DNA from: an uncultured Spirochaetia bacterium
GTDB taxonomy: Bacteria > Desulfobacterota_D > UBA1144 > Nemesobacterales > Nemesobacteraceae
Assembly: GCA_964429945.1 (NCBI GenBank)
Contig: CAYSDX010000114.1
Span: 2,316-66,315, forward strand
Direction: 5' to 3'
Length of the DNA stretch: 64,000 bases
Shown piece after piece: positions 5,952 to 61,362 of this stretch. The stretch's first letter is position 1. Every line of letters begins with the position of its first letter. The position numbers were made by a program, and so were the translations under genes. The notes beneath the pieces were generated by a model that saw nothing but the letters and a program-made list of their open reading frames with translations, was not told the DNA's origin and made no database searches.

Positions 5952-6149
5952 TATATAATACCTACCTCTAAAAATTTAATATTCGCGGGAGTATTCCACA
6001 CCTACATTGCTTTGTCAAACGGCACTCTCCCCGTCACCAGCATTTTTTCCGTTTCCAGAGAAAATGCTGGGTGTGGGGAAAAAGAATAGTGGTTCTAAAA
6101 CCTTTTCGCAGTATGCTTGCCTGCACTCAAATCCGCGTGAAGCGGATTG

Positions 6150-6350
6150 TTAAACAGGTATAACGTTGGTTGCGGTGGGTCCTTTCTTGCCTTGAGTGAT
6201 CTCAAAGCTTACTTCGTCACCCTCATTGAGAGTTTTGTAACCGTCGCCCTCAATGGCGGTGTAATGAACAAAAACATCATCCTGCACTTCGTCGGATGTT
6301 ATAAATCCATAGCCTTTGGAGCTATTAAACCATTTTACAGTTCCCTGCAT
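6150..6350 (-). CDS. Cold-shock protein (CspA family), copy 2
   Basis: 66 aa from the internal ATG at 6350 ([17 protein letters not shown]...). The 123-aa ORF-track version reads through the conserved leader. Confidence 0.92.
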
Positions 6351-6549
6351 TGCAATACCTACCTCTAAAAATTTAATATCTGCGGGAGTATTCCACAGCG
6401 AAACTGCTTTGTCAAACGGTATTTTCCTGCGTCTCCAGGAAAAATTCTGGGTGAAGAGGAAAACAATAGTGGTTCTCAAAACTTTTCGCAGTATAATTAC
6501 GTGCATCCCAAATCCGCGCAAAGCGGATTTTTAAGCAGGTATAAAATCA

Positions 6550-7104
6550 ATGGAAGACAGAAAAAGAAAAAGAATCTACATTTTCTGCGTAGTGCTGTTT
6601 CTGCTTGGAGGGGGTCTTTTTTTCTATAACGTCGTGAAAAGTTTCAGCGGGCTCGGCTCAACGCTTAGCGAATACACTTTTCCCGGAAGCCACTCCATCC
6701 GGCTTGAAGAAAAGGGGCTTTATTCAATCTACTACCAGTACGAGGGTGTTTCCGATGGGGAAAAGACAAGCAGTGAATCCGTTGAGGAGGACTCCATAGT
6801 CGTTTACCTGAAAAAAGTTCCGGGCACTGAAAACGTGGAGCTCAAGGTGCCTGATTCAAAGAAAAGGTACAGCTACATGGGAAAGAAGGGAGTTAAGATC
6901 CTTGAGTTCGAAAACCCCGAGCCGGCGGGTTACCTGATCGAGTCATCCTCAGGCGCTCCTTCCCGGGACGCCTCCTACACGCTGGTCCTTGAGCATGGAT
7001 TCGAGATGACGAGGCTTAAGGGAATACTCCTCTCCCAGGCGTTTTTGCTTGCCCCGACCCTTTTCGCGATAATACTTTTCATGCGCACCTACATAAGGAG
7101 CTGA
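6550..7104 (+). CDS. Hypothetical membrane protein (N- and C-terminal transmembrane helices)
   Basis: 184-aa ORF with hydrophobic helices IYIFCVVLFLLGGGLFFY and AFLLAPTLFAIILFM. No family recognised. Confidence 0.5.
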   Translation: MEDRKRKRIYIFCVVLFLLGGGLFFYNVVKSFSGLGSTLSEYTFPGSHSIRLEEKGLYSIYYQYEGVSDGEKTSSESVEEDSIVVYLKKVPGTENVELKVPDSKKRYSYMGKKGVKILEFENPEPAGYLIESSSGAPSRDASYTLVLEHGFEMTRLKGILLSQAFLLAPTLFAIILFMRTYIRS

Positions 7105-13776: not shown

Positions 13777-14058
13777 CTATTTTCCCATACCGCCCGCCCC
13801 GGTGGGCCTTGTGTCTCCTAGTTCTTCTATGTGCGAACTGATGAATTCCTCTGCGTGATCAAAGCAGAAATAGTAGGAAAGAAGGGTACTGCCGCTCCGG
13901 TTGACTGTGATCAGCTGGTAGTGGCGGCTGCAGATATCCATCCCGCACTTTATGCACTGCTTGATATGGTTTCTCTCTCCCGAAAGTTCGCACTGTTCTC
14001 CACCAGGACTTACGTGATCGCACTGGTAGATTTCGACTTCTATTGTTTTTACCGACAA
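13777..14058 (-). CDS. Small Cys/His-rich hypothetical protein (possible zinc ribbon)
   Basis: 93 aa from a TTG start 9 nt after GGAGG. Cys/His pattern CDH..x8..C, CIKC, CSRH, CFDH. Confidence 0.55.
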   Translation of the reverse strand: MSVKTIEVEIYQCDHVSPGGEQCELSGERNHIKQCIKCGMDICSRHYQLITVNRSGSTLLSYYFCFDHAEEFISSHIEELGDTRPTGAGGMGK

Positions 14059-14089
14059 ATGCCTTTACCTCCCCTTGATTTCTACGTTA

Positions 14090-14119
14090 ATTATACAGTT
14101 TCGCCGGGTAGTTTTGTAA
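14090..14119 (-). promoter_or_regulatory. Candidate sigma70-type promoter of the Cys-rich small gene
   Basis: Minus strand reads TTACAA, 18-nt spacer, TATAAT, about 30 nt upstream of the TTG start. Confidence 0.4.
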
Positions 14120-14182
14120 CTGATTTATTTCCCCGGCCGGTTAGATGTTTAATCGTTGTGGTGATGAGATGGTGGCTATCAG

Positions 14183-14731
14183 CTATCCCAATAGACTGAG
14201 TTTCTCCAACATCCATTGCAGGTTACTATCGTACAGTGCTGCGCGTCGAATATCTTCAATTCCGAAACGTTTGTGCAGCTCTTCGGCGGATGCCGGCTTA
14301 CGATAGTTCTCCCAAAGTTTCTGCAGATTCCGCTTTGCCTTATCCGCCTTTAGAAACTGCTTTTCCCGGCCTACGTGGAGCCTCAGCAGCAGACCTTCAA
14401 AATTCGGTTTCAGGTAAACCAGTTTCAGGTTTTCCGAATTCGCTTTCGGTTCCGGGTCACGACCGGATTGTATGTCCTGTTGAAGCCGGTCGGAATCGAG
14501 CAGTATCAGTCCGTTTGAGAATTTACCTCTGGTCTGGATGCGTCTGCGGTACTCATAAACTGCGTGTTCGGTGACTGTAAGGCTGTCTCCGCCATTACTG
14601 ACAGCTATATCGAGGTGAAAGTTAACACCCTGTTCCTCGCAGAGGATTTTCAGCCACTTTGCGAGCGAACGCTCACTTTCGCCCTCGGCACCGACAAATA
14701 TGCGTTTTCGTTTAGGATGTCGCCGGACCAT
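14183..14731 (-). CDS. RloB-like (TOPRIM-like) small protein, partner of the upstream ATPase
   Basis: 182 aa with N-terminal IFVGAEGESE (conserved Glu), LILLDSD (DxD) and PNFEGLLLRLH resembling the RloB signature. The start is 3 nt after the ATPase stop (TGAcagATG). Confidence 0.6.
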   Translation of the reverse strand: MVRRHPKRKRIFVGAEGESERSLAKWLKILCEEQGVNFHLDIAVSNGGDSLTVTEHAVYEYRRRIQTRGKFSNGLILLDSDRLQQDIQSGRDPEPKANSENLKLVYLKPNFEGLLLRLHVGREKQFLKADKAKRNLQKLWENYRKPASAEELHKRFGIEDIRRAALYDSNLQWMLEKLSLLG

Positions 14732-17772: not shown

Positions 17773-18072
17773 TAATTAGGACACTGGTGATGGTTCATTT
17801 CGTCTACCAGAGGTCAGGGAGTCTGAAGTTCGCAGAATTACAGAAGATCATGACGTTAAAGGATTCTACGAAGGGGAATACAAGAACTGTGACCTTGCCT
17901 TCTTGGAATATGATAAAGAAAAAGAGACGGATTTGCTAATTCTGTCAGGGATCATTCCTTCGCCCCTGTCTTGGAATTCTCAAGCAAAAGAGTAGAAACT
18001 CTAGCTAGTTAGTGTTACATTTTATAAGAAATGCGGCAATAAGAACGTTAAGACTAATAAGGAAGGAGAATC

Positions 18073-18363
18073 TTGCGCAAGATGAAAAAGCTGCTGTTGC
18101 TGTTAATGTTCTTGCCGCTGGTCGGTGCGACATTTAGCGTGGCGGTTGCGGATACGTACGTAAGAGGTTACTACCGCAAAGATGGAACTTATGTGAGACC
18201 ACACTACAGATCATCTCCAGACAGCAGCTACAACAACAATTGGTCTGTTAAACCGAACGTAAATCCATATACTGGCAAATCCGGCACAAGGAATCCGACA
18301 TGGAACGATAGAAGTCCATATACCGATACGGATTCATATTATATTGACCTATACGGGGAATAA
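18073..18363 (+). CDS. Small secreted protein (signal peptide; Tyr/Asn/Pro-rich mature part)
   Basis: Signal peptide MRKMKKLLLLLMFLPLVGATFSVAVA, then YVRGYYRKDGTYVRPHYRS...NPYTGKSGTRNP. Confidence 0.6.
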   Translation: MRKMKKLLLLLMFLPLVGATFSVAVADTYVRGYYRKDGTYVRPHYRSSPDSSYNNNWSVKPNVNPYTGKSGTRNPTWNDRSPYTDTDSYYIDLYGE

Positions 18364-18612
18364 AAAAGTGTCCTATTCAGCAATTGTGCGATGAATTGAA
18401 TGTTTCGCCGATCGGGCTATTTGGTTTTTAAATTGTCTTATCCGTTAATGAGAAAGCTGGAAAAAAGAAAGTTTACGCTGCAGGAAGAAAGGGGCATGGC
18501 AAACGAATATCTTCTTATTTGGCAATAATTGTGTCCCCTTTGATGTGGTTGCGCACCAAATGGATTTCTTACAAGTCTGTTTTTCCCGTCTGGGGCTGAC
18601 CAAGAAAACGCC

Positions 18613-21600
18613 TTGCGGGAAATTTTATCTGAAGAGTTTGGCAGTGATAAGCAAAAAACAATTGGAGTTGAGTTCGTGAGTCCCGATTCAACTATTTCAT
18701 TGGAAACGGCCCACGAGAATTTGGGCTGGCCAAATCCAGAAAATGTAACGCATCCCAAAGGTGCGGGGGCATCAGTCTTTGCCGCACTGGTCCGGGAAAA
18801 GATCGGGAGTGCTTTGCGACATCTTCTCCAAGCTCAGAAGGTGCGGATTGGCGTTCTGATGGAAGACCCAGATGCTTCAACATCTGAACCGCCTCTGGCA
18901 ATTGTCGCGGAATTCAATTCAGAAATAGATGCAGAAGTCCTTCGCGAGTTGCACCGGCTATCTTGGAATTTCTCGCATGTGCCCGTGGTAATAACGATTG
19001 AACCGACCCTACTGCGCGCTTGGAGTTGTTGCGAAGCCCCCGACCCTGAGCGTGAAATTGATGAGTACTTGGTGCGAGATTTTCCGGCGGAGCATTTAGA
19101 GATTGGACGGTCTGAGGAAATCGAGGTGCGTGCGGCGCATGTCTTGCATTGGGTAAATTTGGCTTCGGGGCAATTTTTTGCCGAGCATTCGTCGCGTTTC
19201 AATCGCAATGGCCGTGCGGACCAGATGCTTCTGCAAAATTTGCGTTACCTTCGCGAGGAACTTAAAAACAGAGGGTTGACCGATGATGACATATGTCATG
19301 ATCTGCTGGCGCGCGTGATTTTTGTTCAGTTTCTCTTCGACAGAAAGGACCGGGATGGAAATCCCGCACTTACGGACGGGAGGCTCCTTCGTCTTCAGGA
19401 AGATGGAGTTCTCAAAAACTCCCACTCGTCCTTTGAAGGTGTTCTTCTCGACTATGAGGATACCTACCACCTATTTGATTGGCTCAACGCTAAATTCAAC
19501 GGCGACCTGTTCCCCGGCAAGGGCAACTCCTCCCAAGAACGAGCGGAAGGATGGGCCAAGGAGAAAGAAATTGTTGAGGCGAAGCACTTGTCACTGCTTG
19601 CTGATTTTGTCCGCGGCGATTTGGACATGCCCTCGGGACAGATGTGCCTCTGGCCTCAGTATGCTTTTGATGTCATTCCGCTGGAATTCATAAGCAGTAT
19701 TTATGAGACGTTCGTGAACGAGCGTGCGTCTCAGGATGGTATCTATTATACTCCTCCTCACTTAGTCGATTTTGTTCTGGACCGTGTTCTGCCTTGGGGC
19801 GGAACGGACTGGGATTTGAAAATCATGGACCCCGCCTGCGGTTCGGGTATTTTCCTAGTGAAGTCGTTTCAGCGGCTCGTTCATCGCTGGAAGCTGTCAA
19901 ATCAGGATGAACAGGTGCGGGCGGAAACGTTGCGGCGTCTGCTTGAGCGCAATATTTTTGGCGTCGACAAGGACCCGCACGCAGTACGCGTAGCCTGTTT
20001 CAGCCTCTATCTGGCCATGTGTGATGAGATCGAACCACGATATTATTGGACACAGGTTAAATTTCCGACTATGCGCCAGCGTCGATTGGTTCACTCTGAC
20101 TTCTTCTGTGAGGATAAGGAAGGGTTCAACACCGAAAGAGATGCCGGATCCTACGACTTGGTCATAGGCAACGCCCCGTTCGGTGCCGGTGTAATCACTG
20201 ACCATGCCCGAACTTGGGCAACCAGCAATGAACGCCGATGGAGCATACCTAACAAGGATATTGGCGGACTGTTTCTGGCCAAGGGTGCGCAGTTAGTTTC
20301 CGAGGCCGGGCGAGTAGCGTTTATTCAGTCTGCAAATGCTCTTTTGTTTAATGTTGGCAAAGCGGCAGACTTCCGCAAGGAGTTGTTCACCACGTATAAA
20401 GTGGAAGAAATCTACAACCTCTCCGCATTGCGTTTCCGGATATTTAAGGGAAAAAAACACACGGCGAAAACTTCTATGGCGCCTGTCTGCGTAATTGTTT
20501 TGCGCAGGGAAATCCCCTCGCTACATGACACGATAACTTATATCAGTCCGAAACATCTGCGGCCGCTTGTGGACGAACTTACTATAGTGATTGAACCGGG
20601 TGACCGGTGCTCGCTTTCGGTTCAAGACGCAATTACCGACCGTACGATTTGGTCAAAACTTATGTGGGGAAACCCCCGTGATTTGCAGTTGATCAAGAAA
20701 CTGCAGAATTTTCCAAGCCTGAAAAAACTGGATGGCGATTATAAAATAAAATCTCGAGTAGGCGTTGGTTTTGGTGACAAAAAGAAGTCCGCACCATACC
20801 TTGTTGGAAAAAGGATTTTCCGCGAAAAAATGTTCTCGACGGAGAATATTTTTTCATTCAATGCAGATGATTTGCACTTAGTTAAAGAAGACATTCGGGT
20901 GCATTCGCGGGACTCAACGAATCTCGAAGCGTTTTCATTTCCGCAAATCATTGTAAAGCGCAGCTGGAATAGACCTACTGGCCGTTTTCATGTCCGCTTT
21001 CCCATATCAAAAGACAAAGCGGGAATTCTTTGTAACGAAAGTTATATTTCAATACACTCCGAGAAGACGGTTCTGGAAGCTGCCTGCTTTTCACATAACA
21101 GCAAGATTGCGGTGTATTTTCATTTTCTGACTAGCGGGCGCTTTGCCGCTTACAGGCCAAGGCTCTTGAAAGATGAGATTTTAAACCTGCCTATGCCGGA
21201 TCCTGAGTCAGACTTGCTTCAAGGAATCGAAAGCTATCAAGCCCTTGACGAGCATGCATTCAAGCTTTTTGGTTTAAAGGACGCGGAAAGGGTTCTCATA
21301 GAAGACACGATTGAATATACTCTTGAAGATTTTCTTGGGAGGGAACGCACAGACTCAAAAGGTAAGCAGCGGACATCCTTTGGTGATTCAACTGAAAATG
21401 AAACGCATATGCGTTCCTATTGCTCTTATTTCCTCCGCGTTCTTAAAGCCGGGTTCGGTAAAGAAAAGTTGGTTTCAGCAACAATCTTCAGATGTTTGCC
21501 CGAAAGCGTGCCTTACCGATTGGTTGCTTTTGCTCTGGGGGCTGAAGCAGAGAATGAAGTTGAAATTAAAAATATCCAGTCAAGTGCTCTTTTAGAGGAA

Positions 21601-24984: not shown

Positions 24985-25623
24985 TTACGGCTCGTCGATT
25001 AAGCGGAGCCACTTGTCGGATAAATGCATCCACTCATCTTTAAGAAGGAGGCCTGCCCCCTGCGCGAGTACATCTTTTATAGGAGAAAGAGACTTCTTGG
25101 TTTTAGCCATAAGTATGGCTCCTTCGAACTGAGAAATCATGAATCCGGCCGCCATCTTCGTATCAAGATCCTCTTTTAAAAAACCCTGTTCTATTCCTCT
25201 TCTAAAACAGTTCTCAAGCAGAGCTTCGCATTCCCGAAAATATTTATCCAGAACAAAACGGAATTTCTCGTTTAAGGAACTCTGTTCCAAGGCCAGGTTT
25301 CCGAAAATAGAGCCCGGGTATATGGGCTGCTTGAAAAGATCACGTTGAGAAAAAAATCTCATTTTATACCATTCCCAAAGCTGTTCAACAACATTGAGAT
25401 CAGTTTCCATGATTTTCGAGAAGTCACGGATTTCGGTATCGGCAAGTTTTGTGAGAACACTCAATCCCAGCTCTTCTTTGCCTTCGAAGTAGTAGTAGAA
25501 ATTGCTCTTGGAAACGCCCGCTTTCTTTATAAGCATGTCTATGGAAGTTCCGTCATAACCATAGATATGGAAAAGCTCGGTAGCGGCATCCATAATTTTA
25601 TCTTTGTTGCTCATAACGTTCAA
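24985..25623 (-). CDS. TetR/AcrR family transcriptional regulator
   Basis: N-terminal HTH AATELFHIYGYDGTSIDMLIKKAGVSKSNFYYYF. Confidence 0.88.
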   Translation of the reverse strand: MNVMSNKDKIMDAATELFHIYGYDGTSIDMLIKKAGVSKSNFYYYFEGKEELGLSVLTKLADTEIRDFSKIMETDLNVVEQLWEWYKMRFFSQRDLFKQPIYPGSIFGNLALEQSSLNEKFRFVLDKYFRECEALLENCFRRGIEQGFLKEDLDTKMAAGFMISQFEGAILMAKTKKSLSPIKDVLAQGAGLLLKDEWMHLSDKWLRLIDEP

Positions 25624-25699
25624 TTAACTCTAGTGCTAAAATTACTAAACCTTTAGAAAAATCCATTGTCAAGGGTAACAGGGATGAATTTAGAAGTGA

Positions 25700-26827
25700 T
25701 TACAATATAATACGGAACGGTTGGTCCTTATCGAGGCCCGCAAGTTCTTCGGATGAAAAACCTTTTGACTGGAGCAGAACCTTGAACCTTTTTCCCATGA
25801 ATTCAGGCATAAAAAGAGTTTTGGCCGCGAGGCGATCCTTCTCGTTCTGCGGCTTATCGTATGTCTTGAAAATCTCGAGAATTCCCCAGTCAACAAGGAA
25901 CTGCCCCTGCGTGGTATACTCGACGGCAGCAAGACCCAGAGTATCTCCGACCCTCATAAGTTCGGAAAAATTAACGTCGGCGGTTATATCCTGCTCTCCG
26001 ACCCTTATGTAAGGATTTGAACTGAGTTCGTGGCGGTAAAAACACCTCCAGGTACCCCCGCGTTTTTCGGGCGAGTAGAGTTCGGAGGCCAGAGATCCGT
26101 AGTCAATACTGAGAACAAACCCTTTTTGAAGCGTTTTTCCCACCCCGGCAAGCCATTTTCCCGCCAGTAGACAAGCTTCCGCCTCTTCGCCCTGAGCGTA
26201 TTTGTCCAGATACCGTTTCGAAAACTCATGGACATCCTCGGTTTCAGGATCTCGAAGAACTTCCTCGATTTCCCCGTCGCGAAGGGAAAGAAAAACCTCG
26301 CGCATCTTCCCCCCATCCGATTTCAGCCTGTGGAAAGGCAGAGAATCAAGAAATTCGTTCGCGATTATCACTCCGCAGAAGCCATCTCTTTCGATTTTTC
26401 GCAGGTCGTCCGTCCACCGCACTTTCTCGCGGTGTCCCTCCAGAGTTTTTTTCGCCGCCCGTCTCGCCACGGGGCTTATCTCGCTTATAACGTAATCGGT
26501 TCTTGAGTAGAGGTCCGGGTGGGTTTCACGAAGAGCTCCGAGTATGTCGAATGCAAGCTGACCGTTTGAGGCCCCGAACTCCACGACCGTGAACTTTCCG
26601 CCTCCAAGAAGAAGCGACGCCTTGGCAAGCAAGCGCGAGAGGGTCTCCCCGAAAGAGCGGTGAACCGACGGGGCGGTGTAAAAATCGCCCTTCTTTCCGA
26701 TTCTCGCGTTTCCCGACGAATAGTAGCCCTGCTCCGGGTGAAAAAGAGAGAATTCGACAAACTTCCGGAAAGAAATCGAGCCGGATTCCCGTATTTCCTC
26801 CTTTATGATTTCCAAAAGCGTACGCAT
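25700..26827 (-). CDS. Class I SAM-dependent methyltransferase, MidA/NDUFAF7 (DUF185) family
   Basis: FRKFVEFSLFHPEQGYY...GDFYTAPSVH...VVEFGASNG pattern typical of DUF185. Confidence 0.75.
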   Translation of the reverse strand: MRTLLEIIKEEIRESGSISFRKFVEFSLFHPEQGYYSSGNARIGKKGDFYTAPSVHRSFGETLSRLLAKASLLLGGGKFTVVEFGASNGQLAFDILGALRETHPDLYSRTDYVISEISPVARRAAKKTLEGHREKVRWTDDLRKIERDGFCGVIIANEFLDSLPFHRLKSDGGKMREVFLSLRDGEIEEVLRDPETEDVHEFSKRYLDKYAQGEEAEACLLAGKWLAGVGKTLQKGFVLSIDYGSLASELYSPEKRGGTWRCFYRHELSSNPYIRVGEQDITADVNFSELMRVGDTLGLAAVEYTTQGQFLVDWGILEIFKTYDKPQNEKDRLAAKTLFMPEFMGKRFKVLLQSKGFSSEELAGLDKDQPFRIIL

Positions 26828-54199: not shown

Positions 54200-54271
54200 G
54201 TGGCGACGGGTGGGTTCGAACCACCGACACAGGCCTTATGAGAGCCCCGCTCTACCCCTGAGCTACGCCGC
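54200..54271 (-). tRNA. tRNA with CAT anticodon (elongator Met, or Ile2 if lysidine-modified)
   Basis: Minus strand GGCGGCG-UA-GCUC-AGGGGUA-GAGC-G-GGGCU-CUCAUAA-GGCCU-GUGUC-GGUGG-UUCGAAC-CCACC-CGUCGCC-A. The G1-C72 pair argues against an initiator. Confidence 0.85.
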
Positions 54272-54365
54272 CTCAGGAAAAAACAAGGTAAACCGAAAGG
54301 CAGCAAATTATACCGGAACTCCGTCAGGATTCAACGCACAGACCCGCTATCCGGGCTTTTCGTAA

Positions 54366-55040
54366 TCAGCCGGCGGCCGCGCCGTTTTTCTTGGTTTCTT
54401 CCCTGATGAGTCCGAGTTCCAGGAGTTTTCTGTAGGTTCTGGTGTGGGAACCGTAGTGGGAGAAAATCTCTATGTCCCCGGGTTCGTCGATATCGATGCT
54501 GATGTTCAGGTTCTTGTAGATGTCGCAGGGCACGTATCTGCGCTCGGCTTCCTCCCTGTGTTTTCTGAAGCTGTCGTTGCCGAACATGGAGGGGATGGTG
54601 TCGGGGGGCTTTCTCAGTATGGCGTTTGTGCCGAGCTCGTCATCCGAGGGCACCAGGATAACGGACTTTCCCTTTTTTTCCTTCTCAAGGATGAAATCAA
54701 GGTCCTCGCCGGTTACAAGCGGGGTGTCGCCTGGAATCACGAGCACCGACTTGGCGCCCATTTTCCTGCAGACCTGAAGCGCCAGGTCAACCGACCCGCT
54801 TTCCCCAAGCGGCGTTTCCTCCCTTATGACGTCGAATCCCTCCTCAAGCGCCATTTTCTCCGCCCTCCTGTCAACCGTCACAATGACCTTGTTGTCGGCA
54901 AGCTTGGAGCTTCCGACCGCGGAGAACACGTCCTCAAGCATCACGTAGGCAAGCTCGGTCCTCTGCTTTTTGCTGAGCACAGATGCGAGCCTCTCGTTTG
55001 CCTTGGAAAGGTCCTTTACTGGAATCAGTATGAATTTCAA
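54366..55040 (-). CDS. cofC: CofC/FbiD-like 2-phospho-L-lactate guanylyltransferase (MobA-like NTP transferase fold)
   Basis: MKFILIPVKDLSKANERL...VLVIPGDTPLV pattern of the DUF121/CofC family. Confidence 0.55.
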   Translation of the reverse strand: MKFILIPVKDLSKANERLASVLSKKQRTELAYVMLEDVFSAVGSSKLADNKVIVTVDRRAEKMALEEGFDVIREETPLGESGSVDLALQVCRKMGAKSVLVIPGDTPLVTGEDLDFILEKEKKGKSVILVPSDDELGTNAILRKPPDTIPSMFGNDSFRKHREEAERRYVPCDIYKNLNISIDIDEPGDIEIFSHYGSHTRTYRKLLELGLIREETKKNGAAAG

Positions 55041-55319
55041 AACAGTTACCTCACGACGAGAACCCCAACCCGGACACTATTTTATCACAAGTTAGTTTTG
55101 GTTCCCATATCTCTACAAATAAACCATTTATAGGGTTGTGCGCTTTGGCCGCTTTTGCAAGAAGGAATCGGTCGAAGGGCTGAATGACCTCTGAATTTCA
55201 AAGTTGAATCCCCTAATGATATGTAGGAAACTTAGATTGCGTAAGGTTTCGCAGCAGAGTTACACTACTGTGACATGTTGCAGCCTTTGGGAAACAAGTA
55301 GTAGCAACTAGGTGTGGAT

Positions 55320-56441
55320 ATGACGGAAGAGTCAAAAAATCTTAAGCGCATTCGGATTGAAGGGTTCAAGTCTATAAAACAACTCGATTTGATCATGAAA
55401 GACATCAACGTATTGATTGGTGCAAATGGAGCTGGAAAAACCAATCTGATTTCGCTGTTCACTTTTCTAGGTTGTTTATCCCAAGGTAAGTTGCAACAAT
55501 ATATTAAAACAGAAGGGGGAGCGGAAGCCTTTTTCCATTTTGGCACTAAAAACACAAAAAGGATAAAGTTAGGTCTGGAAATTGGAAACAACGAATACAA
55601 TGTGGAATTTTTGCCCGACTTGGATAATGATTCCTTGTTTTTTGACATTGAGAGTTGTCGCAGGGTTTATCCACCAGGTGGAACGAATTGGTACCTTCGC
55701 TCAAGAAAGGGTGAAAGCGGTTTTGTAACAGAAGATCTCATGGGTCAAGCGGTAAAATACTATACGAAAAAATATCTTGACCAATGCAGAGTTTACCATT
55801 TTCATGACACAAGCAGCCAAGCCGCATTCAAGAAAAGATCTAGTCTGTACGATGACTATTACCTTGAAGAGGATGCGGCTAATATCGCTCCTTTTCTTTA
55901 CGACCTGAAAACTGATCAGGATGAAGATAGCCAGCAATCATATAATCAAATTGTTTGTGCAATTCAGAGTGTGGCCCCGTTTTTTCACGGTTTCTACTTG
56001 GAACCGACGGGAAAGCGGGGAGATGAAAATATTTTATTGCGCTGGATGCACAAGAATCGCCGGTCACCATTTAGCGCTAATGCTCTATCGGACGGAACGG
56101 CTAGGTTTGTCTGTCTCGCAACTCTTTTACTGCAGCCTGAGTCGAGAAGACCCGACACAATAATACTAGATGAACCGGAACTCGGATTACACCCCGCGGC
56201 ACTTTGCGTTCTCGCCGATATTATCCGCTCAATATCTGTGGAAACGCAGGTCATTTGTTCTACGCAATCCGTAGTTTTTGCGAACTTTTTCAGTCCCGAG
56301 GATTTTATCGTAACGGAGTTAAAAGATGGAGTTTCGGTGTTTAAGCGGCTTGAGAGAGAGCAGGTTGAGCAGTGGCTGGATGAGTATGGGATGGGCGAAA
56401 TCTGGTCCAAGAATCTTATTGGCGGTCGCCCGGAATGGTAA
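55320..56441 (+). CDS. ABC-type (AAA_21/AAA_15-like) ATPase, partner of a DUF4276-like protein
   Basis: ATG 55320 preceded by AGGTG. Walker A GANGAGKTN, signature-like LSDGTARF, Walker B TIILDEPELGLHP, C-terminal NLIGGRPEW. Confidence 0.78.
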   Translation: MTEESKNLKRIRIEGFKSIKQLDLIMKDINVLIGANGAGKTNLISLFTFLGCLSQGKLQQYIKTEGGAEAFFHFGTKNTKRIKLGLEIGNNEYNVEFLPDLDNDSLFFDIESCRRVYPPGGTNWYLRSRKGESGFVTEDLMGQAVKYYTKKYLDQCRVYHFHDTSSQAAFKKRSSLYDDYYLEEDAANIAPFLYDLKTDQDEDSQQSYNQIVCAIQSVAPFFHGFYLEPTGKRGDENILLRWMHKNRRSPFSANALSDGTARFVCLATLLLQPESRRPDTIILDEPELGLHPAALCVLADIIRSISVETQVICSTQSVVFANFFSPEDFIVTELKDGVSVFKRLEREQVEQWLDEYGMGEIWSKNLIGGRPEW

Positions 56442-57046
56442 GACTTGCCGTATCCGTGGAGGGCCAGACGGAGGAGCGTTTTATAAAAGAAGTAATTGCT
56501 CCCCACTTAGAAAGTCGGGAGATTTATGCCCAACCGATTCCGCTCGGAAGCGGAGGGGGCGATGTTTCGATGCCGCGCGTCAGAAAAGACTTGATAAACT
56601 TGCTGGGAAGTTTTGATAAAGTAACGACGTTCTATGATTTTTACGGGTTTCGGGGGAAGGATGAGGCGGAGAGCAAGGAGTCGTTAGAAGCGAAAATCCT
56701 TGATTGCGTTAAATCCCAGTCTCGCGTCCGGCTCATTCCATATATCCAGATGTACGAATTTGAAGGGTTGCTGTTTTCATCTCCGCAGGCTATAGAAAAC
56801 AATATTCCTCCCTATAGCGGGTTGTCGGATTGGGCACAGCGAGTGGTTAGTAAATTTGGCGGAGACCCCGAAGCGATAAATGACTCAACGCATTCTGCTC
56901 CTTCAAAAAGACTGAGCGGTAAAACAAAATACATAAAAACTATTCATGGGCCCGACATAGCGGGTGAAATTGGCCTTGAAGTATTAAGAGAGAAATGCAA
57001 GGATTTTGGAAAGTGGCTTTCTAAATTGGAAAAATTGAGGGCATAG
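56435..57046 (+). CDS. DUF4276-like (TOPRIM-like) small protein
   Basis: 203 aa with N-terminal LAVSVEGQTEERFIKEVIAPHL and later YEFEGLLFSSP. The ATG overlaps the ATPase stop (ATGGTAA). Confidence 0.6.
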   Translation: MVRLAVSVEGQTEERFIKEVIAPHLESREIYAQPIPLGSGGGDVSMPRVRKDLINLLGSFDKVTTFYDFYGFRGKDEAESKESLEAKILDCVKSQSRVRLIPYIQMYEFEGLLFSSPQAIENNIPPYSGLSDWAQRVVSKFGGDPEAINDSTHSAPSKRLSGKTKYIKTIHGPDIAGEIGLEVLREKCKDFGKWLSKLEKLRA

Positions 57047-57161
57047 TTCTATATTCAGATAGATTGTTCATATGATATGAATGACTCGCACTCCTTTAAG
57101 GCATTTGCACTGTTGAATGTCATGTTTTCAAGTTTGACTTGACTGCAGTAAACTAGAACAA

Positions 57162-59930
57162 ATGAAAGAATGGAAATGGGAAGGCTCACGTTGGTGGAAA
57201 TTTGATTTCCATACCCATACTCCAGCCTCTGATGATTACGGCAAGGGACAGAACCAAACAGCCTTGAAAGAACACAAACCTAGGGACTGGCTGCTTGACT
57301 ACATGCGCGCCGGTATCGATTGCGTTGCAATAACTGATCACAATAGTGGTCAGTGGATTGACCTTGTCAAGGAGGAACTTGCCCGATTGGAAAGTGATCC
57401 TCCTGAAGGATTCAGGCCTATTCACGTATTTCCGGGCGTGGAAATCTCGATTAACGGTGGCATACATCTTCTGGCGATTTTCGGACCTGATAAAAAGACA
57501 TCGGATGTAGACTCTCTTCTAACAAGGGTCGAATTTGACGGCGAAAAAGGTTCAGGCGATGGAGTTACATGCCTTTCGCTCATCAAGGTTGTTGAAGAAG
57601 TTGTTTCAGCAGGAGCAATAGCAATTCCCGCCCATGCGGACAAGACGAAAGGGCTTTTCAATGTTTTTAAAAAAGGAAAAACGCTAGAGCAGGTACTGGA
57701 CTGCAAAAGTGTTTTTGCGATAGAGTTGGTTGATCCAGATTGCGAGAAGCCGGGAACCTATGCCGACAAAAATCCTCGGTGGACCGAGGTGCTCGGGTCT
57801 GACAGTCATTATCCTCCCGGCAGTTTGGAAGAAAAATACCCCGGCAGCCACTTCACTTGGGTCAAAATGGGAACGCCGGGAATAGAGGGACTACGGTTAG
57901 CTCTGCTTGATGGTCCACTGTCCGTGATTCGGTCCGACAGGCAGGAAGGCAACCCTAACGAGCGTGCGAAAATGGTGCTGGAATCCATAGAAGTTTCGCA
58001 AGCGCGTTATCTAGGCCGTTTCAACCCCTTCACAATAGAGTTTAACCCTTGGCTTAACTCTATCATCGGTGGCAGGGGGACCGGCAAATCGACCATCATT
58101 GAATTTCTGCGTATTGCCCTGCGAAGAGAGGATGAATTGCCGGAAGACTTGCAAAACGACTTTGAAAAATACAGGAAAGTTTACCCCGACAGAAAAGAAG
58201 GCGGTCTTCTCACGGATGAAGTTACTATCAAGACAGTTTATCGCAAGGACGATTCACGGTTTTGCGTACAGTGGGACAATGCTGGGAATCTTGAACCCAT
58301 TGAAGAGGAAATTGAAGGAGAATGGAAGCGTGCCGAAGGTGATATTCGACAACGATTTCCGGTGAGAATTTACAGCCAGAAACAGATATTTCATCTTGCG
58401 AAAAGACCACTTGCCTTACTCAGCGTGGTTGACGAAGCTCTGGAAGTGGATCGTCACTCTTGGGATGAGAAGTGGAGACAGGCGGAAAGCAGATTCCTTT
58501 TTCTGCGTGCAAAAGTCAGAGAGACAGAAGCCGGATTGTTTGAAAAAACGCGTCTTCAGGGCGAGCTTGAAGACATAAAAAGAAAGCAGGATATCTTCGA
58601 ACAGGCTGGATACGCGGATGTATTACGGAATTTTCAGAAATTGAGCCGCCAGAAACGTAGCATGGGAGATTGGGAGGAAACTTGGATTGAAGTTGGAGAA
58701 AGGTTGCGGCGTGTAGCGCGTGAACTTGTTCCCGAACCTCTTGAAGATAAAACCTTTGATACGGATATTGAGGCAGATGTCGAATTGCAAGGACATGCAG
58801 CCGCGGCACGCGAAAGCTTGGGTGAATTACGTAAAGAAGTTGAATCTCTTGCATCTCGAGCAGATAAAATTCTCGCCGAGTGGCAGAAGAACAAGGATGA
58901 ATCATTTTGGAAGAGGGGTGTTACCGTTGCTGAACAGGCCTATCAGAAATTGAAGGAAGACTTGGCAAAAGAGGGAGAAGACGACCCAGCGGGTTACGGT
59001 GAGTTGGTACAGCGCCGCCAATTCATCGAGAAGAAACTTGAGCGGCTTGAGGAATCCAAAAAGCATGTAGGGGAACTTGAAAAACAGTCAGAGCTGCAGT
59101 TAGAAGAAATGCTGGAAATCCGCCGGGAACTGACCAAATTCCGAGAGAATTTTTTGAACGGGGTACTAGGTGAAAATCAATATGTCCGCATAAAGGTTGT
59201 TCCTTATAGAGCAACTGATACTGTTGAAGCAGAATTCCGCCAGTTGCTTCAAAGGGAAGGCTCGAGCTTCGAGAAGGACATAGGTTCGCCAAACGGCGGA
59301 GGATTGCTCGGGAACCTTTATAAGGGTAATAAGTGCAGTGAGAATATCGAAAAGAATCTTGCGGAAATCAAAAACAACGTTAGGGATATTGCCTCTGGCA
59401 AGGATGATCCACAGGTTGTGGATCAACGATTCTCTAAGCATGTCTCTAATCTCAACCCTGAAGCTATTGATCGTATAGACATGTGGTTTCCAGAGGATTC
59501 ACTTGATGTCCAATACAATGCAACGGGCGAAGGTGAGAATTTTCTCTCGATAGAGGAAGGCTCGCCTGGACAGAGGACAGCTGCGCTTCTGGCCTTCCTT
59601 CTTTCTTATGGGGATGAACCCTTGATTCTGGACCAACCCGAAGATGATCTGGACAACCTGTTGATCTATGATTTGATTGTGACCCAGTTACGGAACATGA
59701 AGCGCAATCGACAGATCATTGTAGTGACGCATAATGCCAATATAGTTGTCAACGGCGATTCGGAACTAATTGTGGCTCTTGCCCCGCATTACGGTGAAAC
59801 GAAAAAAGACTGCAACGGAAGTCTTCAGGAGAAAGAAGTCAGGGAAACTATTTGCGCAATTATGGAGGGAGGAAGTAAGGCATTCGAAGATCGCTATCGT
59901 CGTATCGCGCCTGGAAAAGACCATGTTTAA
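57162..59930 (+). CDS. PHP-family phosphoesterase fused to an SMC/RecN-like ABC ATPase with central coiled coil
   Basis: PHP motifs FDFHTHTPASDDYG, AITDHNS, GVEIS..GIHLL and IPAHAD. Walker A GGRGTGKST, about 250 aa of charged heptad-like sequence, signature-like SPGQRTAALLAF, Walker B LILDQPEDDLD, then VVTHNANIVVNGDSE. Confidence 0.8.
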   Translation: MKEWKWEGSRWWKFDFHTHTPASDDYGKGQNQTALKEHKPRDWLLDYMRAGIDCVAITDHNSGQWIDLVKEELARLESDPPEGFRPIHVFPGVEISINGGIHLLAIFGPDKKTSDVDSLLTRVEFDGEKGSGDGVTCLSLIKVVEEVVSAGAIAIPAHADKTKGLFNVFKKGKTLEQVLDCKSVFAIELVDPDCEKPGTYADKNPRWTEVLGSDSHYPPGSLEEKYPGSHFTWVKMGTPGIEGLRLALLDGPLSVIRSDRQEGNPNERAKMVLESIEVSQARYLGRFNPFTIEFNPWLNSIIGGRGTGKSTIIEFLRIALRREDELPEDLQNDFEKYRKVYPDRKEGGLLTDEVTIKTVYRKDDSRFCVQWDNAGNLEPIEEEIEGEWKRAEGDIRQRFPVRIYSQKQIFHLAKRPLALLSVVDEALEVDRHSWDEKWRQAESRFLFLRAKVRETEAGLFEKTRLQGELEDIKRKQDIFEQAGYADVLRNFQKLSRQKRSMGDWEETWIEVGERLRRVARELVPEPLEDKTFDTDIEADVELQGHAAAARESLGELRKEVESLASRADKILAEWQKNKDESFWKRGVTVAEQAYQKLKEDLAKEGEDDPAGYGELVQRRQFIEKKLERLEESKKHVGELEKQSELQLEEMLEIRRELTKFRENFLNGVLGENQYVRIKVVPYRATDTVEAEFRQLLQREGSSFEKDIGSPNGGGLLGNLYKGNKCSENIEKNLAEIKNNVRDIASGKDDPQVVDQRFSKHVSNLNPEAIDRIDMWFPEDSLDVQYNATGEGENFLSIEEGSPGQRTAALLAFLLSYGDEPLILDQPEDDLDNLLIYDLIVTQLRNMKRNRQIIVVTHNANIVVNGDSELIVALAPHYGETKKDCNGSLQEKEVRETICAIMEGGSKAFEDRYRRIAPGKDHV

Positions 59931-61164
59931 CAGCCCGGAAGAACTGCTGCGCAAAATACATCTTGGAGAAGACAACTCGCTTGAGCTTAAAGCTATTGTG
60001 TTCAGAGGGGAACGGATTATCGGGCCATCGCGCGACGAACTGGCCGACGAATTTTCCTCTATAGCCAATACTAACGACTGCGTAGTTGTTCTGGGCGTGG
60101 ACGATAAGACTCACGAGATAATTGGTATCCCGGCAGAACGCATAGAAACCGTTGAGCGTTACTTATACGAAATTTGCAATGACAGCATCACACCGCCTGT
60201 TTTTTTTCGATCATTCCGCATGGAACTTCCCGACAGCACAGGTGCTTTGCAGATCGTCCTCAAGGTGGAAGTTCCGCGCAGTCTCTTTGTCCACGAAAGC
60301 CCGGGCGGCTACTTCCATCGCCAAGGGAGTTCAACACGGAAAATGTCGCCGGAATATCTCGCCCGCATGTTTCAGCAACGCAGTCAGGCCCGATTGATCA
60401 GATTTGAAGAACAGCCTGTCCCCCAGTCAAGCATAAATGATTTATGTAAGGAACTGTGGGAAAAATACACCACGCGTTCCAATGAACCCGTAGAAGTCAT
60501 TTTGCTGAAGCGTTCTTTATTGTCCAAAGAGGAAAGTGGGACTGTGGTTGCTTCGGTGGCAGGCATATTGTTTTGTAGCGAATATCCAGAGCACTTTTTA
60601 CCCAACGCATTTATTGAGGCCGTGCGCTACAGGGGAACAAGGCAGGATTCCAATTATCAGATTGATGCTCAGAGAATCCGCGGACCACTTGACCAGCAGA
60701 TAAAAGAATCCATGGCTTTTCTAAGAAGGAATCAGGTTGTCGGAGCTGTCAAGAAACCTCATCGCGTCGAAAAGCCGCAGTTCAGCGAGCAGGCCGTATT
60801 TGAAGCTGTGGTAAATGCCGTGGCTCATCGGGACTATTCGATCTCCGGATCAAAGATCCGGCTCTTCATGTTTGATGACCGGCTGGAAATTTACTCGCCA
60901 GGCGCTCTTCCCAATACCGTAACCATTGACAGCATGCACCTTCGCCAAGCGACCCGGAATGAACTGATTACAAGTCTGCTTGCGGAAACACCGGTGGCAA
61001 CGGCGATTGGAGATGTGGGACGTGGTTTCTACATGGAAAAACGAGGTGATGGAGTTCCAATTATTTTGGATGAAAGCGAAAGACTTTCCGGAAAAAAGCC
61101 GGTTTATAAACTCATCGATGATTCCGAACTTTTGCTAACCATTTATTCTGCGAAAACGCGATAA
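59923..61164 (+). CDS. AlbA_2 (Schlafen-like) domain protein with HATPase_c_4-like C-terminal domain (COG2865-like)
   Basis: 413 aa from ATG 59923, overlapping the upstream stop (ATGTTTAA). N-terminal GEDNSLELKA...VVVLGVDD and C-terminal FEAVVNAVAHRDYS...LEIYSPGALPN. No C-terminal HTH seen. Confidence 0.7.
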   Translation: MFNSPEELLRKIHLGEDNSLELKAIVFRGERIIGPSRDELADEFSSIANTNDCVVVLGVDDKTHEIIGIPAERIETVERYLYEICNDSITPPVFFRSFRMELPDSTGALQIVLKVEVPRSLFVHESPGGYFHRQGSSTRKMSPEYLARMFQQRSQARLIRFEEQPVPQSSINDLCKELWEKYTTRSNEPVEVILLKRSLLSKEESGTVVASVAGILFCSEYPEHFLPNAFIEAVRYRGTRQDSNYQIDAQRIRGPLDQQIKESMAFLRRNQVVGAVKKPHRVEKPQFSEQAVFEAVVNAVAHRDYSISGSKIRLFMFDDRLEIYSPGALPNTVTIDSMHLRQATRNELITSLLAETPVATAIGDVGRGFYMEKRGDGVPIILDESERLSGKKPVYKLIDDSELLLTIYSAKTR

Positions 61165-61286
61165 ACTCATCAATGATTCCGAACTTGGATCATGCGGGAA
61201 TATAATCGGGTAAATTCCAGAGAGTATCCGCGCAAGAATATAGCTTGGAAAAACAAGAACCGCTGCTCCCCGCCGTATTCATTTTA

Positions 61287-61316
61287 TTGACAATAAAAGA
61301 TGCCTGTATATAGAAT
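61287..61316 (+). promoter_or_regulatory. Candidate sigma70 promoter of hisBH
   Basis: TTGACA (61287-61292), 18-nt spacer, TAGAAT (61311-61316), 47 nt upstream of the hisB ATG. Confidence 0.4.
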
Positions 61317-61362
61317 GATTAGCGGAAACTAGCCGCCACGCCGCGAAGAAAGGAGCCCGACA

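Follow-up and report, generated by a model that had tools for sequence, protein, structure and literature searches.

What does the 6.3-kb block between cofC and hisB in this uncultured bacterium encode: one defence system of four genes, or smaller units that happen to lie side by side? The block occupies positions 55041 to 61362 of the window (the whole 64,000-nucleotide stretch of contig CAYSDX010000114.1 that was analysed), between cofC (54366-55040, minus strand) and hisB (from 61363), and its only sizeable open reading frames (ORFs) are four plus-strand genes, here g1 to g4, arranged as two overlapping pairs 115 bp apart. We conclude that the block is a chromosomal anti-phage hotspot holding two independent modules, A (g1 and g2) and B (g3 and g4). 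As judged from sequence, module B, in which a gene of the TrlF/Ppl family (g3, 57162-59930) is followed by one for a Schlafen-GHKL protein or 'Schlatpase' (g4, 59923-61164), is a conserved two-gene cassette, and module A (g1, 55314-56441; g2, 56435-57046) is its local neighbour. An earlier sequence-only reading of this DNA had described four same-strand genes of defence-associated families, AT-richer than their surroundings and forming two translationally coupled pairs, and each of these points was borne out. GC content per kb is 0.40-0.50 (55-61 kb) against 0.56-0.60 on either side, and GC at third codon positions (GC3) is 0.43-0.50 in g1 to g4 against 0.71-0.76 in hisC, tyrA, hisB and hisH; the genes of the two pairs overlap by 7 nt (g1-g2) and, once the start of g4 had been corrected, by 8 nt (g3-g4); and Pfam, PADLOC and NCBIfam matches place all four products in families associated with defence.

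Whether the block was two modules or one four-gene unit had been left open by that reading, and comparison with other genomes decided for two modules. The three nearest genomes, the uncultured Thermodesulfobacteriota chromosomes OZ242322, OZ242379 and OZ252213 (about 84% nucleotide identity), all share the order hisC-tyrA-msrB-cofC, variable cargo, hisB-hisH-slt, and all three contain g3 and g4. One of them (L051) carries g3 and g4 alone, and a second (L001) has all four genes, as the window does. Relative to L051, g1 and g2 form a clean indel covering 55108-57135 of the window and ending 27 nt before the start of g3. A single four-gene system is suggested by the common strand, by the gap of only 115 bp and by the recurrence of this layout in L001 and L068. 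However, g1 and g2 adjoin g3 and g4 in only two of the 80 loci described below, again L001 and L068, which are nearest relatives, and HEC-01, the candidate system that g1 and g2 resemble, was defined independently elsewhere (bioRxiv 10.1101/2024.01.29.577857). We therefore regard a four-gene system as exceedingly improbable. Nor are the four genes a core-like syntenic set, as their composition is not core-like and HEC-01 varies among the relatives.

The pairing of g3 with g4 was followed in a GTDB set containing one genome per species, which was scanned with a g3 alignment and gave 439 relatives; the best 80 loci were kept, and g1, g2 and g4 were mapped onto these (loci are numbered L001 and so on). 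In 70 of the 80, the g3 match is followed within 60 nt, on the same strand, by a full-length g4 homologue (45-91% identity); the 70 include one locus with g4 split by an insertion sequence (L038) and one with a partial g4 (L063). The 10 unpaired loci include L058, which is at a contig edge, L066, in which g3 is frameshifted, and L061, where a divergent AlbA_2 gene lies downstream at a distance of 240 bp. Pairing hosts belong to at least 12 phyla, and include Thermodesulfobacteriota, Rhodothermales, Latescibacterota, Acidobacteriota, Planctomycetota, Nitrospirota, Chloroflexota, Spirochaetes, Myxococcota, Gamma- and Zetaproteobacteria and Magnetococcales. Of the complete pairs, 64 in number with that of the window counted beside 63 loci, 61 have a g4 start that overlaps the g3 stop, by 8 nt in 51 pairs, 11 nt in six, 17 nt in two and 1 nt in two; the other three have a short gap. 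In the 42 loci with enough flank, clustering sorts the 84 flanking ORFs into 68 groups, and therefore only g3 and g4 are constant. The pairing reaches g3 relatives at 34-42% identity, and cultured bacteria too carry it on plasmids (Burkholderia thailandensis, NZ_CP068711.1; Pseudomonas avellanae, NZ_CP026566.1; also Pseudomonas syringae plasmids), where RefSeq names the g3 homologue 'TrlF' and the second gene 'ATP-binding protein' or 'RNA-binding domain-containing protein'. The proteins are WP_202821680.1 and WP_202821679.1 in B. thailandensis (AW34-19p p1) and WP_005740914.1 and WP_005740916.1 in P. avellanae. The association is thus deep and widespread in the TrlF/Ppl family, and the lineages in which the gene stands alone include the experimentally studied Ppl.

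The g3 product (922 amino acids) is a TrlF/Ppl-family protein that would combine a PHP-like metal phosphoesterase domain with an SMC/Rad50-like ABC ATPase. It scores 622.7 bits against NCBIfam TrlF_fam_ATP (NF045780; cutoff 350), residues 8-915 aligning with profile positions 2-943 of 944, and the same residues match the PADLOC Ppl model end to end (E = 4.7e-148); against the NCBIfam Ppl_antiphage equivalog it scores 595.8 bits and does not reach the cutoff of 1000. In a 21-sequence alignment the N-terminal residues H17, H19, D59, H60, E94, H102, H158, D214 and H216 are invariant, as are the ABC motifs: Walker A (GRGTGKST), the SPGQ signature, Walker B (LILDQPED) and the H-loop histidine, H857. 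An AlphaFold2 model (predicted local distance difference test score 66.5) has long antiparallel helices (residues 431-669), a coiled-coil insert, within the ABC head, and matches JetC, SMC, MukB, Rad50 and LmuB. A sequence search of the PDB with g3 gave no match, and phage records held only distant, partial ones. Plasmid-borne proteins of E. coli and Klebsiella that carry the annotation 'anti-phage protein Ppl' are 29-35% identical to g3. With Ppl, a PHP exonuclease-ABC ATPase encoded by plasmids and prophages of E. coli and Klebsiella, g3 shares its end-to-end architecture and a defence context, and in g3 the ABC motifs and the His/Asp set of the putative PHP domain are intact; it differs in falling under the equivalog cutoff and in that Ppl is a solo gene (PMC12904381), the one annotated example inspected (L164) having no Schlafen neighbour, while a Schlafen-GHKL partner is conserved in the g3 clade. 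Membership of the TrlF family is indicated by the curated NF045780 cutoff and by the RefSeq names of the plasmid homologues, but the name TrlF carries no two-gene system definition and two enterobacterial plasmid members lack a Schlatpase; we found no relevant paper on TrlF.

The start of g4 is the ATG at 59923, not 59770 or 59920, which gives a protein of 413 amino acids; a longer, TTG-initiated ORF from 59770 was rejected as an artefact of mechanical ORF calling. Pfam finds SLFN_AlbA_2 at the N-terminus (E = 1.9e-12) and HATPase_c_4 (PF13749) at the C-terminus (1.1e-19), and nothing useful in the linker. The motif E16-x4-E21-x-K23 and the GHKL N-box (E294, N298, H302, R303, D304, Y305) are conserved to at least 97% across 64 orthologues, in which the SPG and GxG boxes are also conserved. 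With Foldseek, the N-terminal part of the structural model matches human SLFN14, SLFN5, SLFN13 and SLFN11 at E-values of 1e-6 to 1e-4, as well as SLFN12 and the SAMD9 tRNase domain. The best PADLOC match is to the N-terminal part of a pAgo model, presumably that of a Schlafen-pAgo fusion; neither a PADLOC 2.0.0 system model nor an NCBIfam model for g4 was found, so not every gene of the block falls to a separate, validated system. In viral contigs the g4 clade is essentially absent (two weak matches). The Schlafen-GHKL 'Schlatpase' supradomain has been described for SLFN-pAgos (bioRxiv 10.64898/2026.05.29.728809), and Slfn-GHKL is the commonest bacterial Schlafen architecture (PMC13056530). 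Bacterial Schlafens are phage-activated tRNases that cleave tRNA once a sensor is triggered (PMC13056530), although such cleavage has been reported for RorSlfn5, Cash and RzAgo only. Compared with the prokaryotic Schlafens (pSlfn/Schlatpase, as in the SLFN-pAgo RzAgo), g4 has the same two domains, the Ex4ExK motif, the GHKL N-box and the likeness to human SLFN folds, but lacks a fused Argonaute, Ig-like or DUF262 sensor; instead, it is preceded by a TrlF protein that is encoded separately and coupled to it in translation.

Another possibility is that g4 serves chiefly to regulate g3 or the operon, as a nucleic-acid-binding, ATP-sensing switch rather than a killing effector. Close homologues carry source names such as 'predicted HTH transcriptional regulator' (HTH, helix-turn-helix) and 'putative DNA binding domain-containing protein', and g4-type genes, like widespread defence regulators, are found next to many defence systems unrelated to one another. 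However, the strong conservation of the Ex4ExK nuclease triad speaks against this, no Pfam HTH domain matches the 413-residue form, and g4 lies downstream of g3, to which it is translationally coupled, rather than upstream. We consider a mainly regulatory role for g4 quite improbable.

On balance we lean towards the proposal that g3 and g4 act together as a defence pair. For this module we observe the domain content, intact catalytic motifs, conservation of the operon, co-inheritance and a defence context, and we infer every biochemical activity, together with the functional dependence between g3 and g4. E. coli Ppl is a validated single-gene anti-phage system and a 3'-5' exonuclease on single-stranded DNA; it is inhibited by nucleoside triphosphates bound to its PHP and NTPase domains and is activated by nucleotide depletion plus 3'-OH ends (PMC12904381). 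By analogy with it, g3 would use its SMC-like ABC ATPase to detect the ends of phage DNA and nucleotide status, and its putative PHP domain to digest DNA in the 3' to 5' direction. In g4, by analogy with SLFN-pAgo and the bacterial Schlafen RorSlfn5, the binding of ATP to the GHKL domain would drive oligomerization and the Ex4ExK nuclease would cleave tRNA. Translational coupling would fix the ratio of the two proteins, which would act together, g3 as a DNA-directed first layer and g4 as a translation-shutoff (abortive-infection) effector licensed by g3 or serving as its backup. A broader formulation, which we advance tentatively as possible, is that TrlF(Ppl-like)-Schlatpase may be a widespread two-component anti-phage system, in which a PHP exonuclease/SMC-like ATPase sensing DNA ends and nucleotides would be coupled, physically or functionally, to a Schlafen tRNase and so link DNA sensing to the shutoff of translation.

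The genes around the pair place it in a defence setting. Upstream neighbours of g3 and g4 include nine that match PglX/PglXI models, two PglZ model sets, possibly overlapping, match four and three flanking ORFs, and there are also matches to BrxH, DrmA/D and HmaA. A PglX-like gene lies upstream of the pair in L007, L010, L018, L034 and L050, and a PglZ-like gene downstream of it in L007, L010, L018, L050, L077, L078 and L080; several g3-g4 pairs sit within BREX loci between pglX and pglZ. This setting bears on the idea that the pair has a DNA repair or housekeeping role, as an SbcCD- or Rad50-Mre11-like nuclease-ATPase, rather than one in defence. The resemblance of the g3 fold to SMC, Rad50 and MukB heads would fit a repair function, as would the retention of g3 and g4 at a single position in each of the three nearest genomes. 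Against it are the strongly atypical GC3, the patchy distribution across phyla with changing flanks, the embedding of pairs in BREX and DISARM loci, the occurrence of disrupted copies (the insertion sequence in L038; frameshifts in L066, L071 and L074) and the fact that the homologue Ppl is a validated defence gene, and we judge a repair role very improbable.

The main rival to a functional pair is that g3 and g4 are autonomous, g4 being a generic Schlafen 'backup effector' cassette found behind many defence operons, of which the TrlF clade inherited one early, so that the two genes share an operon with no dependence. A survey of BREX treats Schlafen-HisK-wHTH (winged HTH) RNases, linked to BREX in 1017 taxa or more, as 'backup' effectors with an auxiliary role, and never mentions PHP or Ppl (PMC12839542). 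Homologues of g4 at 44-75% identity follow genes other than g3 in four loci: SIR2-HerA and two unknown genes (L085:629-7245, 75% identity), Druantia DruE (L091:262-7248), an ABC-3C/DUF2326 gene (L116:950-5421), and a DrmD-like helicase, with a type III methylase gene further on (L147:3158-8980). When metagenome contigs were searched with a g4 alignment, g3 lay upstream of only about half of those g4-clade genes for which sufficient upstream DNA was available, in a set that is selected on g4 and so cannot estimate the frequency of g3 pairing. Schlatpase is therefore promiscuous, while members of the g3 clade almost always have it as a partner; because of this promiscuity g4 may work autonomously. 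Autonomy of g3 is consistent with the action of Ppl as a single gene and with the existence of solo TrlF lineages. An enterobacterial plasmid TrlF with 48.7% identity to g3 is a solo gene, and one on an E. coli plasmid (NZ_CP097432.1, L165:1-6850; 38.6% identity) follows a DEAD/DEAH helicase and an N6 DNA methylase and lacks g4, its nearest kin in metagenome contigs being paired.

These exceptions all weigh against a functional pair, and so do several further results. The pairwise-identity matrices of g3 and g4 are correlated across the 64 pairs (Pearson 0.83; none of 999 permutations as high), but correlated divergence is expected from co-inheritance alone and is no proof of interaction. Comparison of paired with solo g3 sequences revealed no partner-specific region and was uninformative: only five columns discriminated, and two of these (R913 and V922) fall at the C-terminus or close to it, in coding sequence shared with g4. 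The structural model of g4 is confident for residues 1-150 only, the rest being too poor to use. In g3, Pfam finds no match in residues 1-270, and the assignment of this putative domain to PHP is modestly supported by its motifs and by weak profile matches to 2anu (TM0559, E = 0.0019), 3qy6 (YwqE, 0.078) and 3e0f (1.4); there is also a match to NCBIfam CehA_McbA (2.9e-7) that is below that model's cutoff. With regard to the defensive nature of the block as a whole, HEC-01 gave no phage protection in E. coli in its sole published trial (bioRxiv 10.1101/2024.01.29.577857), and this too counts against our conclusion. On the other side, in many phyla g4 has been retained by about 90% of the genes in the g3 clade, the 8-nt overlap being conserved, and the pair persists while its flanks vary. 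A weak hint that g4-type proteins need a partner comes from a study of seven Schlafen constructs in E. coli, in which protection was conferred only by the DUF262-Slfn and Ig-like-Slfn fusions; the HisKinase-type Schlafen, which is the architecture of g4, was among those selected for testing (PMC13056530). Overall, we consider full autonomy of g3 and g4 unlikely, and retain the cooperating pair as our working proposal.

How new is the system? The sequence-only reading had singled out the block as a candidate for an undescribed or poorly described system, and this holds in part: we did not find the g3-g4 operon catalogued, whereas HEC-01 is catalogued, g3 is a TrlF/Ppl protein and g4 a prokaryotic Schlafen-GHKL. 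All the domains of g1 to g4 are already known, and PADLOC would call g3 'ppl' and PGAP would call it 'TrlF'. What we could not find described as a system is the conserved TrlF-Schlatpase operon, which would be a new two-gene variant; no phage-context paper linking Ppl or TrlF with a Schlafen was found, and an earlier mention in computational genomics may exist. Ppl has been treated as a one-gene system, and no Schlafen-GHKL protein has been reported as a stand-alone defence gene. In the operon a putative DNA-directed nuclease and a putative tRNA-directed effector form a pairing that can be put to the test, and that is available on the plasmids of cultured Burkholderia and Pseudomonas. If g3 and g4 are interdependent, the naming used by PADLOC and NCBIfam would need a two-gene definition and the Schlafen-GHKL module would gain a known activating partner; a two-component arrangement would also explain why Slfn-GHKL has not been shown to defend alone.

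Module A matches, at the level of protein sequence, the catalogued but unvalidated PADLOC candidate HEC-01 (Hma-embedded candidate 01). The g1 gene could start at GTG 55314 or ATG 55320, and the latter is the more likely as it agrees with the start in L068. Its product is an ABC-type ATPase (Pfam AAA_21, E = 1.5e-25; AAA_15, 4.5e-15) with Walker A (GANGAGKT) and Walker B (ILDEPE) motifs; it matches PADLOC HEC-01A (PDLC04175; 1.8e-130) over residues 8-373 and profile positions 4-362 of 363, and more weakly mad3 and AriA (AriA, 1.1e-26). The g2 product matches Pfam DUF4276 over all 192 profile positions (192/192; 3.4e-43) and PADLOC HEC-01B (PDLC04188) over its full length (2.9e-57), with no AriB match in the PADLOC and Pfam scans; DUF4276 is a member of the Toprim superfamily with a catalytic Glu and DxD (PMC12065111). 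What g1 and g2 have in common with HEC-01, MADS Mad3/Mad4 and PARIS AriA/AriB is that they pair an ABC ATPase with a Toprim-type protein, here encoded on one strand by overlapping genes, and by analogy with OLD, PARIS and Mad3/Mad4 the ATPase of module A would act as a sensor that holds or activates the DUF4276/Toprim nuclease. There are differences from each: AriB of PARIS carries DUF4435 and g2 carries DUF4276, the remaining MADS genes, methylase included, are absent beside g1 and g2, and at this locus g1 and g2, unlike HEC-01 as named, are not embedded in an Hma system.

As HEC-01 means 'Hma-embedded', the idea arose that g3 might be an Hma ATPase. It was rejected: the homologues in L165, L081, L061 and L072 match the Ppl model only (E <= 1e-20), and no Hma ATPase model is among the matches listed for g3. 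The layout of L165 recalls helicase-methylase-ATPase, and the TrlF homologues of L061 and L072 also follow large same-strand genes. In L006, from an unrelated gammaproteobacterial metagenome-assembled genome (L006:15226-17218), a g3 homologue lacks g4 and has downstream of it a 764-amino-acid gene, then an AAA_21-like gene and a 237-amino-acid ORF; the latter may be DUF4276-like, which suggests a second HEC-01-like module near a TrlF gene. Several copies of the pair are damaged. In L038 (13490-15324) g4 is cut at codon 247 by a 1.8-kb insertion with a 504-amino-acid ORF, by eye a DDE-type transposase; in L082 (5585-6008) g3 is down to its last 140 codons; and in L066, L071 and L074 the g3 match is split or frameshifted.

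The site itself is an old, variable hotspot with g3 and g4 as its constant core, and not a recent tRNA-targeted integration, and the low GC3 has persisted. In L068 (OZ242379) the cargo also includes, on the minus strand (L068:5455-7673), a ParA-like ATPase (344 amino acids) and a second, divergent Schlafen-GHKL gene (402 amino acids), and past g4 (about 14020-14450) there is an insertion of about 350 nt with what looks by eye like an HTH/antitoxin-like gene. This points to a small chromosomal hotspot with modular turnover of cargo in an uncultured Thermodesulfobacteriota lineage. The neighbouring tRNA had drawn attention in the sequence-only reading, which placed the start of the block about 840 bp from it and found neither an integrase nor a copy of the tRNA 3' end at the far border. 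We agree on all three counts: tRNA-Met(CAT) is at 54200-54272 on the minus strand, 841 bp (far end) or 769 bp (near end) from position 55041, the ORF list contains no integrase within the block, and no direct repeat of 14 nt or more joins the tRNA to the far border. A tRNA-targeted island was rejected on these grounds, and also as cofC lies between the tRNA and the block and the same site is filled, with variable cargo, in three relatives.

The left border, with the region upstream of module A (55041-55313), is where homology with the relatives breaks: the window aligns to L051 only as far as 55108, and to L001 as far as 55052, resuming at 55175. No tRNA-derived repeat was found here, and the tRNA was the only match in an Rfam scan of the block. 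Promoter and terminator scans inside the block gave nothing above chance, including a weak promoter-like site at 57026-57055 (9/12 matches) by the inter-module spacer (57047-57161). At the right border (61165-61282) a 26-nt direct repeat (family D1) surrounds the g4 stop codon, one copy lying in the 3' coding part of g4 (61106-61131) and the second (61161-61186; 25/26 identical, 96%) starting at the stop codon itself. A partial copy (GATTCCGAACTT) is retained 3' of g4 in L001 and L051, and the repeat may be what an old duplication or recombination left behind at the 3' edge of the cassette. Conservation with the relatives, and with it the core, resumes at about 61283, at a near-consensus promoter-like site upstream of hisB (TTGACA-18-TAGAAT, 61287-61316; 11/12 matches) that is kept in all three. 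Elsewhere in the window, the 1-kb intervals 18001-19000, 25001-26000 and 6001-7000 also have a low GC content (0.43-0.46 against a background of 0.5-0.58) and may be further accessory segments, such as the 'island 1' of the earlier reading.

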